Positions 12,397-16,752 of a stretch of 33,517 nucleotides of DNA are shown here, in pieces (within the stretch, counting starts at the first letter, position 1; every line of letters starts with the position of its first letter). The notes beneath the pieces are model-generated. The model was not told the DNA's origin, did no database searches, and worked only from the letters and a program-made list of their open reading frames with translations. The position numbers were made by a program, and so were the translations under genes. This DNA comes from a virus, in the IMG/VR virus record IMGVR_UViG_3300021255_000047, positions 1 through 33,517 of that record; one strand, written 5' to 3'.

Positions 12397-13026
12397 TTAT
12401 CGTTTATATCTTTCACAACAATATATTTTTTCTTTCCATTGTGACACATCACCGCCACGTTCCATGATGATTGACAATATATAATATTCTCGCATATGAA
12501 AGAAATAAGCAAACACATCATCCTCGCTTGTTGTACTATATTTCCTATGTTTCATGGTTACGGCTCTTGTAGCTTCATTGAAAAATTCGGCTGTTTCCTT
12601 GTCTGTTTTGCCCTCTGCTATAATCTCTGGCATACCCATCTTTTCGCCACCATTAAACAAAACAGGACATATGTAATTAGGCTCATAATTCTTTTGGGCA
12701 TAATTGAGCATAGCAAGCGTATAATCATTGAGATAATAAGCAACTATGCAATCACCGCCCGTGGAAGTATTGTAGCCTTGGTCAATCGTTTTTAATTCCG
12801 CAATCAAATATCTTTCAAGCGTTTCTGCCTGCTCTTTCGATATGCCGTCAATGATGATATTATGCGTTACGTTCTCCCATCCATACTTGTTTATGGCTCT
12901 TGCAATTTTAGGCTGAGTTTCGTACCCTTTACCGTTTCTCCATCGTTTTTCAGCATCGCATGAAATACCAATATATTTTTTGCCATTCGGGAAAATATGC
13001 TCATAAACGCAATAGTTTTTATTCAT
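12397..13026 (-). CDS. GIY-YIG family (homing-type) endonuclease
   Basis: Start MNKNYCVYEHIFPNGKKYIGISCDAEKRWRNGKGY (GIY...YIG...R motif spacing as in I-TevI-like enzymes). The ATG at 13026 overlaps the MTase stop by 8 nt. The gene is AT-rich. Confidence 0.7.
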   Translation of the reverse strand: MNKNYCVYEHIFPNGKKYIGISCDAEKRWRNGKGYETQPKIARAINKYGWENVTHNIIIDGISKEQAETLERYLIAELKTIDQGYNTSTGGDCIVAYYLNDYTLAMLNYAQKNYEPNYICPVLFNGGEKMGMPEIIAEGKTDKETAEFFNEATRAVTMKHRKYSTTSEDDVFAYFFHMREYYILSIIMERGGDVSQWKEKIYCCERYKR

Positions 13027-14587
13027 CAAACACCTCGTCATAAGTGAGTTTCTGCCCGTCACGGATGCAGAATATTTCATCTTTTCTGCCTGTAAAATTT
13101 AACCACCTGTTTACGATGACGGAAACGTATCTTTCATCAAGCTCCGCCATATAGCATTTTCTGTTTAACTGTTCACAGGCTATTAGTGTGCTACCACTAC
13201 CGCCAAATACATCAAGGACAATCTCGCCCTCTCTACTACTGCTCTTTATCGCTCTACTGCATAAGGCTATCGGCTTTGGTGTTGCGTGACCGCCTGTGTG
13301 TTCTCTTTCGTCTTTTCCTGCTCTGTCAAAGTGCCACACGTTGTTTTGGTTGTCGTGAGTATTGTCAAAATATGCCCGTGTTTCATACCATTCTTTCTTG
13401 ATTTCGTCATATTCTTTCTTGATTTCGTCATATTCTTTCTTGATTTCGTCATATTCTTTCTTGATTTCGTCATATTCTTTCTTGAATGCGTCATTACCAT
13501 TTCCACGACAGAATTTCTGTATTTTTTGATAATCATCTTTCTGAATTAATCGAGGTTGTTTCTGCGTTCCGTCTCGATTTAATGTCCAATGCTGTGCGAT
13601 GCTTTTGTAACCGCATATTTCATTTAAATCTTTTTCCGTTAATCCGCTTTTTTGTAATTCCTCTGTCATATATTTAAGATATACCCCAAGAGTTTCAGAA
13701 GCGTCTAATATGCCATCTGCACCTTGTACTCCCATCATCACAAACAAGCACTTTTCGTCTGCAATCGGGTACATTCTAAAATCTTCTGACAACTGCCCTT
13801 GTCCGTTCCCTTTGTCCCAAGTGATAAGGTTCCGAAATGTTATCTTGTTCTCTCTCGCCATCGGTTTCAAGATATTGCTGTAAATATCCATCAGCGGTTC
13901 ATCAATCCCCCAACAATACCAAGAGCCATTGTCTTTTAACGCTCCGAATGTCAGCGGAATCCATTGGCGGTTGAAGTCGAGCAAATCATCAAAGTTGAGG
14001 TTGTCATTCAGAACACCCTCGTTCTCTTTCTTCATGCCATAGGGAGGATCCGTGAAAACAAGGTCGGCCTTTACCCCATCCATAAGCCTATCAATGACCT
14101 CCGGATCCGTGCTATCTCCGCAAATCAGCCGGTGCTCTCCAAGCTGCCATATCTCTCCGGCCTTGCAGCGAGTCTCTACTTCCTCCGGGATCTCTACCTC
14201 CTCGACCTCTTTTGGCTCTTCATCTTCCATGTCAAATCCGAAGTCCGACATATCAAATTCGAAGATCTCCGAGATCTCCGCGTCCAAAAGGTCAAAGTCC
14301 CATTCGCTTTCGTTCGTCTTATTATCCGCCAGGCGCAAAGCCTTTATCTGTTCGTCGGTCAGATCGTCTGCTCGAACGACCGGGACGCTGCTCATTCCGA
14401 GCTTCTTCGCTGCCAAAAGTCGCCCGTGTCCTATAACGAGGACGTTGTTCCGGTCTACCACAAGCGGCTGCCTAAAGCCGAATTCTTTTATGCTGTTTGC
14501 TATGTGTTCGACCTGCTCCTCTGGGTGTTTCTTCGCATTCTTGTCGTATGGTACAATCTCCCCTATTGGCATATTTATTATTTCCAA
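13019..14587 (-). CDS. ParB-like nuclease domain fused to an N6-adenine/N4-cytosine DNA methyltransferase (beta class)
   Basis: N-terminal ParB/Srx-like block (IVPYDKNAKKHPEEQVEHIANSIKEFGFRQPLVV...GHGRLLAAKKLG). Motif IV TDPPYG comes before motif I VLDVFGGSGST. Confidence 0.9.
   Translation of the reverse strand: MEIINMPIGEIVPYDKNAKKHPEEQVEHIANSIKEFGFRQPLVVDRNNVLVIGHGRLLAAKKLGMSSVPVVRADDLTDEQIKALRLADNKTNESEWDFDLLDAEISEIFEFDMSDFGFDMEDEEPKEVEEVEIPEEVETRCKAGEIWQLGEHRLICGDSTDPEVIDRLMDGVKADLVFTDPPYGMKKENEGVLNDNLNFDDLLDFNRQWIPLTFGALKDNGSWYCWGIDEPLMDIYSNILKPMARENKITFRNLITWDKGNGQGQLSEDFRMYPIADEKCLFVMMGVQGADGILDASETLGVYLKYMTEELQKSGLTEKDLNEICGYKSIAQHWTLNRDGTQKQPRLIQKDDYQKIQKFCRGNGNDAFKKEYDEIKKEYDEIKKEYDEIKKEYDEIKKEWYETRAYFDNTHDNQNNVWHFDRAGKDEREHTGGHATPKPIALCSRAIKSSSREGEIVLDVFGGSGSTLIACEQLNRKCYMAELDERYVSVIVNRWLNFTGRKDEIFCIRDGQKLTYDEVFDE
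13391..13495. repeat. Tandem 21-bp repeat: 4 perfect copies plus 1 degenerate copy
   Basis: ttctttcttgatttcgtcata x4, in frame, encoding (EYDEIKK)n within the MTase. Confidence 0.95.
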
Positions 14588-15066: not shown

Positions 15067-15339
15067 CTATCCCTCCGGATGTATTGCCGACCATAGCCGG
15101 TTGAGCTTCACGCCTTCCCACTCCGTCACGGCCTCGAAGTTATTGAATATAAACCCGAGCTGTGAAAGCATGATCCGAACGTCCGCCATTTCTTCCGCCA
15201 GATGTTCCTCGTTCCCTTTTCCGCGCAGAATCTTCGTCAGCTCTTTCTGGAGCTCCGACAGCTCCTCGATCGCGACTATTATTTGATGCTCTGTCCCGTA
15301 TGTGTCGATCGCTGCCGTTATTATGTCGTAATTTGTCAT
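15067..15339 (-). CDS. MazG-like nucleotide pyrophosphohydrolase (90 aa)
   Basis: Start MTNYDII at 15339 (ATGA overlap with the MTase stop, AGGAGG upstream). Carries the EExxE...AEEMADV pattern typical of MazG-type all-alpha NTP-PPases. Confidence 0.6.
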   Translation of the reverse strand: MTNYDIITAAIDTYGTEHQIIVAIEELSELQKELTKILRGKGNEEHLAEEMADVRIMLSQLGFIFNNFEAVTEWEGVKLNRLWSAIHPEG

Positions 15340-16574
15340 TCTGAAAACCTCCTCTTTGTGACGGCGATTGGGAATTCTTCGATTTCGGACGCCCACAAAG
15401 CCGAGCCTTTGCCGTTGCACTTCTCCCAGCAAAGAGAGAAACCGCCTATCCCGTCAAACAACGAAGCCATCGTCGCCGGGCGCTCGTACTGTGCCGATAT
15501 ACGGCGGAGCAGCCAAAACCAAAAGGGTAAGGCGATACTATTTCCGAGAGCCTTATAACGCGGGCTGTCCGATGGTTTGTGAAGCTTGCCTTTTGTATCC
15601 GTCCATTCCCCGAGGTCTGTCCAGTTGTCAGGGAAGCCCTGCAGGCGTTCGCATTCAAGTGGCGTCAATCTGCGGACATTGCTATTCATCACGGCGTTTG
15701 GCCCTCTTGATATAAGCGTACTTGATTGATCTTCTGATATGGCGAAGTCGTACAATGCGTTTTTTCCCTGATTGAACGCCGCTCGGTCAATGCCGAATAC
15801 AAGGTCCGTGCCATCCTTATAGTCTCGTGCCTTTATGGCCGAAGTAGAGCCATCCGGGCGGTTGTTGTGATCCCCAGTTATCGTCGGAGCCTGCACGCCG
15901 TCGCCGTTGCCTCTGGCATCATAGACCTGAACGACAGCGTGCCTGTCAGTAACATTCAGCGTGTGCGAAGATCCCTCTCGAACGCCTATTCCGTTCTGCG
16001 AGGTGTTCCTGTCGACCACATGCCCTTCGATGCAAAACACGGACTGGTTATTAAAAGTGGAAAGCGCTCCGGTGTGCTCATTCTGAATCAGTATTCCTTT
16101 GCCCCCCCCCTGGCTTTCCGGCTCTCTCTTGAAATGAGATTGCGCTTCCAGGGCTATCCGTAGCGCCTCGGGCAGCTCTTTCCCTCTCCGCTCCGCTCTC
16201 CTTAAAATCCCCTCGCACGCCTTCGCGCTCAAAGAGTATTTCGGAAGCGGAGAATCCTCCAAAATCTGCGACAAGCGCGATGCGTTTTCTTCGCTGGGGA
16301 ACTCCCCAAAACTGCGCGTCGTGTACTCTCCAGCAGACGGAAAACGGGATCCCGTCGGGGCTATATCCGAATATCCCTCCGGCTTTGTCCCATCTGCCCC
16401 CCCTATCAGGTAAAGGAACGTCGGGCGCTTCGGGGCTTGCGATTTTGACGATTTCCGAGAGAACGGCTTGGAAGTCTTGCCCTTTGTTGCTGGAGAAGGC
16501 TCCGGGGACGTTTTCCCAGACCATGTATCTTGGTCGAATATTGAAAGCTGCCCGGTGATTTGTTCGTCTGTCAT
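15336..16574 (-). CDS. C5 DNA cytosine methyltransferase, part 2: TRD, motifs IX and X, then motifs I-II at the C-terminus
   Basis: RRLTPLECERLQGFPDNW (IX) and RYKALGNSIALPF (X), followed by MASLFDGIGGF...WASEIEEFPIAVTKRRFSE* (I and II). AAGGAG lies 10 nt before the ATG at 16574. Confidence 0.8.
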   Translation of the reverse strand: MTDEQITGQLSIFDQDTWSGKTSPEPSPATKGKTSKPFSRKSSKSQAPKRPTFLYLIGGADGTKPEGYSDIAPTGSRFPSAGEYTTRSFGEFPSEENASRLSQILEDSPLPKYSLSAKACEGILRRAERRGKELPEALRIALEAQSHFKREPESQGGGKGILIQNEHTGALSTFNNQSVFCIEGHVVDRNTSQNGIGVREGSSHTLNVTDRHAVVQVYDARGNGDGVQAPTITGDHNNRPDGSTSAIKARDYKDGTDLVFGIDRAAFNQGKNALYDFAISEDQSSTLISRGPNAVMNSNVRRLTPLECERLQGFPDNWTDLGEWTDTKGKLHKPSDSPRYKALGNSIALPFWFWLLRRISAQYERPATMASLFDGIGGFSLCWEKCNGKGSALWASEIEEFPIAVTKRRFSE

Positions 16575-16752
16575 GCTCTCTCATCTCCTTTACGATCCGT
16601 ATTTGCTCCATGAATAGGCCGGAGCGTTCGCCTTCAAGTCCGGCACGTTTGCCGGCTATTGAAAGGTCTTGGCACGGAGACCCGCCCGTTATGCAATCAA
16701 CGACCGGGACTTCGGCTCCGTTTATTTTAGTTATATCGCCTAAATGCTGCAT
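16078..16752 (-). CDS. C5 DNA cytosine methyltransferase, part 1: motifs IV-VIII with the catalytic Cys
   Basis: MQHLGDITKINGAEVPVVDCITGGSPCQDLS (IV), WENVPGAF (VI), VPQRRKRIALVADF (VIII). GGAGG lies 8 nt before the ATG at 16752. Confidence 0.85.
   Translation of the reverse strand: MQHLGDITKINGAEVPVVDCITGGSPCQDLSIAGKRAGLEGERSGLFMEQIRIVKEMREHDRRTNHRAAFNIRPRYMVWENVPGAFSSNKGQDFQAVLSEIVKIASPEAPDVPLPDRGGRWDKAGGIFGYSPDGIPFSVCWRVHDAQFWGVPQRRKRIALVADFGGFSASEILFEREGVRGDFKESGAERERAARGATDSPGSAISFQERAGKPGGGQRNTDSE
16102..16110. repeat. Homopolymer C9 (G9 on the coding strand)
   Basis: gcccccccccT on the plus strand. It lies 7 sense codons before the ORF1 stop codon, inside both MTase reading frames. 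Confidence 0.95.

Follow-up and report, generated by a model that had tools for sequence, protein, structure and literature searches.

A poly-G tract where a conserved overlapping gene ends is a probable contingency switch in a circularly permuted phage cytosine-5 methyltransferase gene

Introduction

In the phasevarions of Haemophilus, Neisseria and Helicobacter, cellular Type III or Type I mod genes are phase-variable and their switching changes a regulon. We analyzed a 33,517-nucleotide (nt) stretch of viral DNA (IMG/VR record IMGVR_UViG_3300021255_000047, positions 1 to 33,517; the window) in which a run of nine G residues (G9) lies between two open reading frames (ORFs) that each carry part of a cytosine-5 (C5) DNA methyltransferase (MTase). 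We consider it probable that G9 is a hypermutable contingency tract in the gene for a circularly permuted phage C5-MTase with several target recognition domains (TRDs). The locus shares with phasevarions a simple-sequence repeat within a DNA MTase ORF whose length sets expression; it differs from them in that the enzyme is a phage orphan C5-MTase, for which a regulatory role is not expected.

Contingency tracts are also known from phages. Hypermutable poly-G tracts have been described for the receptor-binding proteins of Fletchervirus (Sorensen 2021) and contingency loci for T2 and T4 (bioRxiv 10.1101/2025.10.21.683753), and the latter preprint cites a poly-G tract in a methylase gene of Bordetella phage BPP-1. 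The locus described here resembles those of Fletchervirus and T2/T4 in its G7-G11 runs within phage ORFs, in the shift of frame, in the length polymorphism between related genomes and in the bet-hedging rationale. On the other hand, the gene here encodes an anti-restriction MTase of gut and rumen Firmicutes phages with up to 8 tracts per gene, and, as its main tract lies where an overlapping gene ends, three outcomes are predicted rather than ON and OFF.

A second protein in an alternative frame of C5-MTase DNA, and a natural split near where motif VIII meets the TRD, are both on record for the M.EcoHK31I and M.AquI systems (PMC2836561, PMC5944983); the beta chain of M.EcoHK31I is encoded in the other reading frame inside the alpha gene (PMC2836561). 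That beta chain supplies a conserved MTase motif and is required for activity, whereas the product of the overlapping frame described here (f1) contains no MTase motif, and, unlike in M.EcoHK31I and M.AquI, the split is conditional on homopolymer length. Slaska-Kiss et al. 2018 engineered M.MpeI and M.SssI into the class B permuted topology, which exceeded their other permutants in activity, while their search of REBASE returned no natural class B enzyme (PMC5944983). The same topology, with the N-terminus between motifs II and III, is seen here in a large natural family rather than in laboratory constructs, and natural class B permutation appears to be unreported in the searchable literature. 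Phage poly-G contingency tracts and phase-variable bacterial MTases are already known; what is new is the class of gene and the lineage, the density of tracts, and the fact that the main tract sits where a conserved overlapping gene ends, with three outcomes.

Results

The G9 tract lies between the two halves of the MTase gene

The run reads CCCCCCCCC on the plus strand at 16102-16110 (C9), which is G9 on the coding (minus) strand, and this position, site B, is located in the linker between the half with motifs III-VIII and the half with the TRDs and motifs IX, X, I and II (Table 1). ORF1, which is read in the MTase frame f0, contains motifs III (GDITKI), IV (GGSPCQD), VI (WENVPG) and VIII (QRRKR) and ends in ...KPGGGQRNTDSE*, with its stop 7 codons past the tract in the G9 state. 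ORF2 is in the +1 frame relative to ORF1 and remains open until the stop at 15336; it contains motifs IX (RRLTPLECERLQGFPD), X (GNSIALP), I (LFDGIGGF) and II (SEIEEFP). The ATG of ORF2, which is also that of f1, lies at 16574, 464 nt upstream of the tract, and in the G9 state f1 is in phase with KGILIQ. When we changed the length of the tract computationally, G8 (minus one G) or G11 (plus two) gave a single open frame of 471/472 amino acids (aa), reading ...KPGGGKGILIQNEHTGALSTF..., while G10 gave none.

An earlier note on this DNA, made from the letters alone, had placed G9 at 16102-16110 between two MTase ORFs, had predicted that G8 would fuse them into a protein of about 470 aa, and had called the run the longest G/C homopolymer noticed. 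The sequence bore these statements out, with a computed fusion of 471 aa and with G9 as the longest homopolymer of the window. The motif order that it gave was also right by Pfam and by the motif positions, motif III (GDITKI) being present additionally at the start. It missed that the 5' part of ORF2 is a conserved overlapping +1 gene with its own Shine-Dalgarno (SD) sequence and ATG.

The sole other G/C run of at least 7 in the window is C7 at 16397-16403 in the same gene (site A). This site was found to be frameshifted in the relatives L032, L033, L040 (G8) and L049 (G9). The X2 relative has G6 at site A, one G fewer, and G7 at site B, and no continuous frame could be reconciled for it; it is probably off-frame too. 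Composition alone makes G9 unexceptional, as a 9-base C/G run was present in 19 of 100 dinucleotide-preserving shuffles of the window (mean 0.33). The significance of G9 comes from the comparison with relatives and not from its mere presence.

Pure poly-G tracts occur in all three frames among relatives

We searched viral, genome and metagenome collections for K-P-(Gly)3-K-G-I-L-I-Q, whether or not a run was present, and obtained 85 distinct sequences. Where the glycine codons were interrupted (n=32), all 32 genes were in frame, with 0 in the +1/-2 state and 0 in the -1/+2 state. The genes with a pure G6-G10 run (n=53), on the other hand, were divided among in frame (15), +1/-2, which is the state of the window (18), and -1/+2 (20). 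The difference in frame states between pure and interrupted tracts was significant over the 85 genes (Fisher p ~1e-8), and the pattern was repeated in each source class. We also checked the frame state of 58 analysable IMG/VR loci, among which 36 genes were intact and 14 required a +1 shift at G7-G9 runs at sites A or B. Two pairs of relatives, each with the same 300 nt on either side of the tract and 97% identical across 2-6 kb, differed in the length of the tract, G10 vs G8 in one pair and G8 vs G7 in the other.

The runs were also enriched in this gene. GGG makes up 13-19% of the glycine codons, yet a pure run was present in 62% of the census genes, and the flanking synonymous sites were freely variable. 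G/C runs of at least 7 occurred at 1.36/kb in the MTase region vs 0.028/kb elsewhere in the same 84 loci (197 vs 12 runs), a ~48-fold difference, and 196 of the 197 runs in the MTase region had their G residues on the coding strand. Genes of L085-L308 had as many as 8 poly-G tracts each (G7-G10), spread over the TRD modules at many different Gly-Gly positions. Two tracts on either side of a TRD module might act as a pair that switches a single specificity. The census, the close pairs and the enrichment together give the locus the marks of a contingency locus, namely a repeat within the ORF that sets its frame, length polymorphism between the same flanks and over-representation of the repeat in the gene.

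One further group of loci (L081-L084, the P0121 locus) carried a multiply broken copy, with an f0 of 216 aa, an f1 of 160 aa and then two more ORFs. The sequence of P0121, the 160-aa f1, was identical on 12 contigs; the four loci that we read came from different samples of one study and had the same gene layout.

Two assemblies give G9

The run X1, a 2013 gut metagenome, contained 97% of the sampled words. A 2215-nt contig assembled independently from X1 (Logan; depth 13.1) covers 15300-16284 and showed zero differences or gaps; the coverage of the source contig, NODE_1995_length_33547_cov_9.27, was 9.27. The remaining short contigs that spanned the tract in X1 and X21 belonged to other relatives. 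In this contig-level view the majority allele is G9 by two assemblers. A scan of metagenomes with the exact flanks for sister genomes gave no match, and a search of GenBank gave no near-identical phage, with one 218-nt match at 76% identity. The phage was absent from the RNA runs, in which at most 8% of the words matched, all from relatives.

f1 is conserved as an overlapping gene

The f1 frame was open for a median of 157 codons vs 35 in the third frame (70 loci, intact genes included), and the opening begins shortly ahead of the WENVPG codons and reaches about as far as site B. A start codon was present in 130 of 130 distinct loci (ATG in 98, GTG in 26 and TTG in 6), 1-7 codons from the opening of the frame, and 119 of these loci had an SD-like sequence before it. 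The f1 sequences aligned well across loci with MTases just 35-50% identical to that of the window, and a C-terminal block was strongly kept (E..S.LSQILE...P.KY.LSAKACQGIL.RA.RRGK.LP..L..AL). Part of this block overlaps the variable linker that follows motif VIII in f0, and the conserved motifs VI-VIII of f0 are overlapped by the middle of f1, which is variable and rich in Ser and Lys. Relatives of the f1 peptide numbered 2299 in one database and 4504 clusters (50% identity) in another, and the peptide was always N-terminal.

The f0 frame was constrained where the two genes overlap. Among f0 residues with the same amino acid, codon identity was 0.675 inside the overlap vs 0.431 outside (Mann-Whitney p=5e-20), with a peak of 0.91 at f0 residues 181-195. 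When the f0 codons were shuffled synonymously, f1 was left open in 34/2000 shuffles of the window, 2/2000 of Streptococcus phage Javan105 and 123/2000 of Mycobacterium phage Dove. By its openness and by the synonymous constraint on f0, f1 is a conserved overlapping (overprinted) gene with a predicted product.

A tblastn search against GenBank phages detected f1 in 125 records (Vibrio, Mycobacterium, Escherichia, Ruminococcus, Streptococcus, Caulobacter, among others). In the four records that we opened, which come from cultured phages of three bacterial phyla, f1 was in the +1 frame of the annotated coding sequence (CDS) and was itself unannotated (Table 1). In the MTases of Dove, Javan105 and DMCA the order of motifs is the canonical one, so f1 is older than the permutation. 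The Dove MTase is split into gp107 (motifs I-VIII) and gp108 (TRD, IX and X). We found no description of f1 in the searchable literature, which is not proof that there is none; the overlapping gene appears to be unreported there.

The MTase family is circularly permuted

Pfam PF00145 matched ORF1 over profile positions 46-129 (E=1.6e-25) and the tail of ORF2 over 256-322 (E=4.6e-13). The C5-MTase motifs I, II, IV, VI, VIII, IX and X were all found in the read-through protein and in 16 homologues, with motifs I and II (LFDGIGGF..SEIEEFP) at the extreme C-terminus. A search with the read-through protein returned thousands of relatives, the best of which covered 100% of it as single chains of 410-560 aa, and in the alignment motif III (M-x-H-L-G-D-I-T) opens every homologue and motifs I and II (LFDGIGGF...SEIEEFP...RF) close it. 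As judged from this motif order (III-VIII, TRD, IX, X, I, II), the family is a circularly permuted C5-MTase with a new N-terminus between motifs II and III, and in the window itself the class B order is interrupted by G9. The junction motif KPGGGKGILIQ was kept in the single-chain homologues, of which hundreds share the permuted order, and the junction AISFQERAGKPGGGKGILIQ.E.TGALST was conserved, indicating that the fused G8 reading is the normal or ancestral reading of the family. An AlphaFold model of the 471-aa read-through enzyme had a mean predicted local distance difference test score (pLDDT) of 47 and was too poor for fold comparison.

The middle of the protein is a variable string of TRD-like modules, and for this reason we propose that the enzyme is probably multispecific. 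In the closest homologue, P0001 (81% identity overall), the conserved halves are near-identical, another segment replaces AISFQERAGKPGGGKGILIQ and the TRD modules are different, which points to a modular exchange of TRDs. Another homologue, P0023 (666 aa), has an in-frame HNH_3 (PF13392) insert within motif IX, between QGFP and GWTDIG, that looks like one of the homing-endonuclease type.

The predicted f1 product has a helical hairpin and a clamp-like motif

AlphaFold predicted f1 to be disordered except for a hairpin at residues ~100-148 (pLDDT 81-94), the part of the peptide that reads LSQILEDSPLPKYSLSAKACEGILRRAERRGKELPEALRIALEAQ. A weak match of f1 to PHROG 16143 'DNA methyltransferase' was the only one obtained (E=0.03); Pfam, NCBIfam, PDB sequences and Foldseek gave none. 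We considered the hairpin (LSQILE..KY.LS) as the C5-MTase element that follows motif VIII, present in another frame, on the strength of a resemblance; neither PF00145 nor solved C5-MTases matched it, and we make no such claim.

Clamp motifs occur in PolC, DnaE, Hda and transposases, and DNMT1-PCNA may serve as an analogy. The N-terminal region of f1, which is predicted to be disordered, contains the sequence QLSIF, and a Q-x-x-[LIMFW]-F pattern was found in 190 of 261 members of the f1 family at a median position of 8 (QLSLF, QLGLF, QVSLF and QMSIF are examples), while the strict clamp motif occurred in 0 of 1114 background windows. The motif sits over a variable f0 stretch, indicating that it is not forced by the other frame. 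The bacterial clamp-binding consensus is QL[S/D]LF or QxxLF (PMC12309361). f1 thus shares with bacterial clamp-binding proteins a short Q-x-x-[LIMFW]-F near the terminus in a disordered region, a likeness at the level of a sequence match only. From these five residues and the overall architecture we infer that f1 may tether the MTase, or something else, to the sliding clamp. A literature search for MTase accessory proteins with a clamp motif turned up none.

Features of the locus and a neighboring gene

The coordinates are collected in Table 1. Just downstream of the C5-MTase gene, an ORF with ParB_N and N6_N4 DNA methylase domains (13019-14587, minus strand) contains five copies of a 21-nt unit at 13390-13494 (97% match). 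The repeat encodes in-frame KKEYDEI heptads, and its copy number might vary.

Table 1. Positions of the features discussed, in the window and in four GenBank phage records
Feature	Sequence or locus	Positions	Strand	Remarks
ORF1 (f0), 224 aa	window	16078..16752	-	catalytic half of the circularly permuted C5-MTase
SD-like AAAGGAG	window	16585..16591	-	followed after 10 nt by the f1 ATG; falls in the f0 codons for V-K-E
f1, +1-frame overlapping ORF in the MTase gene	window	16111..16574	-	ATG 16574-16572; in G8 alleles stops just past the tract
Beta-clamp-binding-like QLSIF (QxxLF), f1 residues 9-13	window	16536..16550	-	over the variable f0 stretch between motifs V and VI
Site A, second poly-G tract, G7	window	16397..16403	-	in frame here (D-R-G-G-R-W)
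Predicted helical hairpin, f1 residues ~100-148	window	16131..16277	-	conserved; partly over the variable f0 linker after motif VIII; pLDDT 81-94
Site B, G9 homopolymer	window	16102..16110	-	frame switch; junction of the catalytic half and the TRD/S-adenosylmethionine (AdoMet) half
ORF2, 412 aa (P0017)	window	15336..16574	-	f1 (aa 1-154) joined through G9 to the TRD modules and motifs IX, X, I and II
Downstream half (TRD modules, motifs IX, X, I, II, stop)	window	15336..16101	-	intact in the window
f1 in Mycobacterium phage Dove	L241	62903-64021 (locus L241)		CDS annotated C5-MTase; f1 in its +1 frame
f1 in Streptococcus phage (prophage) Javan105	L242			37.6% GC; CDS annotated C5-MTase; f1 in its +1 frame
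f1 in Caulobacter phage DMCA	L243			CDS annotated C5-MTase; f1 in its +1 frame
f1 in Ruminococcus phage NatCom_38182	L309			CDS annotated 'hypothetical protein'; f1 in its +1 frame

Discussion

As follows from the frames, the length of the tract modulo 3 would select what is joined to the half with the TRDs and motifs IX, X, I and II. At G8 or G11 the catalytic half would be joined, giving a single-chain enzyme and a free f1 of ~158 aa. At G6, G9 or G12, the last-but-one being the state of the window, f1 would be joined instead, giving the 224-aa ORF1 product and a 412-aa f1-TRD fusion, and at G7 or G10 nothing would be joined and the downstream half would be left without a start. Since the 5' part of ORF2 is f1 with its own SD sequence and ATG, the G9 state is predicted to make a fusion protein rather than to be plainly OFF, and it may still yield an active two-chain enzyme, as engineered fragments of the same topology do. 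The polymorphism among relatives suggests that length changes would arise by slipped-strand mispairing during replication of the phage DNA and would be reversible. A population could in this way hedge between C5-methylated DNA, which would be safe from classical restriction, and unmethylated DNA, which would evade methylation-dependent restriction. We further suppose that f1 is translated into a protein that works together with the enzyme and may hold the MTase to the host sliding clamp through the N-terminal QxxLF. The slipped-strand phase variation proposed in the earlier note is thus retained as a frame switch between the MTase ORFs with length variation at the DNA level in relatives, while its phasevarion label, which denotes a regulon under a phase-variable MTase, is wrong for a phage anti-restriction enzyme.

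The tract could also be explained without a switch. An assembly or sequencing error over a true G8, which would leave one ordinary 471-aa gene, has in its favor that homopolymers are classic error sites, that the coverage was modest (9-13x), that the conserved reading of the family is G8 and that inspection was at the level of contigs only. We nevertheless regard the error that the earlier note had allowed for as very unlikely: the independent assembly of the 13x run also gave G9, no variant contig of the same phage was seen, the same +1 state, in which f1 is in phase, is carried by at least 9 further relatives, off-length tracts number 38 among the 53 pure ones but 0 among the 32 interrupted ones, and errors could not produce the 48-fold enrichment of tracts in the MTase gene or the family-wide pattern. 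The same note had named +1 ribosomal frameshifting and transcriptional slippage. In other systems 9-base homopolymers are established sites of slippage, and a shift of +1/-1 nt is what would be needed on GGG GGG GGG, where tRNA-Gly can re-pair or RNA polymerase could drop one G, so that a low level of full-length enzyme might be rescued by either route. As the intended route to the full-length protein, however, programmed recoding seems to us highly improbable. Most homologues are in frame, as are 32/32 interrupted tracts, which leaves no conserved need for a shift; pure tracts occur in all three frames at the DNA level; there is no slow codon or stop after the run (the next codon is CAA) and no RNA run contains the phage. 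The required and conserved shift with a slippery site and a stimulator that defines programmed frameshifting was not found.

A mutational hotspot of no adaptive value, in which the MTase is dispensable and the tract records neutral slippage and ongoing pseudogenisation, would account for the even spread of the pure tracts over the frames (15/18/20), for the many relatives that are broken again downstream and for the multiply broken copy of L081-L084, identical in 12 contigs. We consider it unlikely, since poly-G is maintained and concentrated in the gene although GGG is a minor codon and the flanking synonymous sites are saturated. Moreover, both halves are otherwise intact in the window, the conserved motifs persist in off-frame alleles, and decay would not make G runs at many different Gly-Gly positions. 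A different question is whether G9 is OFF at all. ORF1 (III-VIII) and ORF2 (f1-TRD-IX-X-I-II, made from the f1 start) might form an active two-chain MTase, with only G7/G10 being OFF, which refines rather than excludes a contingency tract. This would be in line with the conserved SD sequence and ATG that ORF2 has through f1, with the f1-TRD-C-terminal fusions of 300-620 aa that are common in databases, and with the complementation between two fragments of the engineered class B cp62M.MpeI, [62-279] and [280-61], split at the same place (PMC5944983); natural two-chain C5-MTases, including M.EcoHK31I, also exist (PMC2836561). However, the -1 state, from which the downstream half could not be produced, is no rarer than the +1 state (20 vs 18), which gives no sign of +1 being favored, and the 154-aa f1 extension might interfere. 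By analogy with these enzymes we treat an active G9 state as possible, though we lean against it.

Several points weigh against a hypermutable contingency tract. The evidence for G9 consists of assembled contigs, in which minor alleles would be hidden, and, depending on the sequencing platforms behind them, part of the length scatter among the public contigs could be error. The closest pairs with differing tract length are 97% identical and are not the same strain. In many relatives with a pure tract the gene has additional breaks farther downstream, frequently at other G runs; the tally was made with a crude frame-walking script and is used just for the coincidence of many breaks with G runs. 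Such multiple breaks fit many independent switches and fit decay as well, and together with the even three-frame spread they are also expected from relaxed selection or gene decay. The products of f1, ORF1 and ORF2 are predicted from the DNA, Pfam, NCBIfam, PDB sequence and Foldseek searches gave no explanation of the f1 hairpin, and the clamp motif is a match of five residues.

A broader scheme, which we offer tentatively and hold to be rather doubtful as a whole, would join these observations. C5-MTase genes of Firmicutes, Actinobacteria and Proteobacteria phages may hide an ancient overprinted f1, whose product, with an N-terminal clamp motif, an extended disordered linker and a small hairpin of helices, would couple the MTase to the replisome, so that methylation of the phage DNA would accompany its synthesis. 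In one large lineage of gut and rumen phages the enzyme also has the class B permutation and the gene many poly-G tracts, and the tract at the end of f1 would act as a three-state switch: one chain with free f1, two chains with f1 fused to the DNA-recognition/AdoMet half, or off.

Annotation pipelines call genes of this kind broken or call one frame only. By the census, a poly-G run puts at least one third of such genes in public viral contigs out of frame, and the conserved gene of 150 codons that lies within them is left out of the annotation. The family supplies natural class B permuted C5-MTases, which the 2018 REBASE search had not found, and is a natural counterpart of the engineered split enzymes for targeted methylation. 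Phage MTases decide whether phage DNA survives host restriction. If the tract is a heritable and reversible switch, a phage population could use it to spread its risk over hosts that cut DNA lacking methylation and hosts that cut DNA carrying it, which would bear on host range in the gut and rumen virome.

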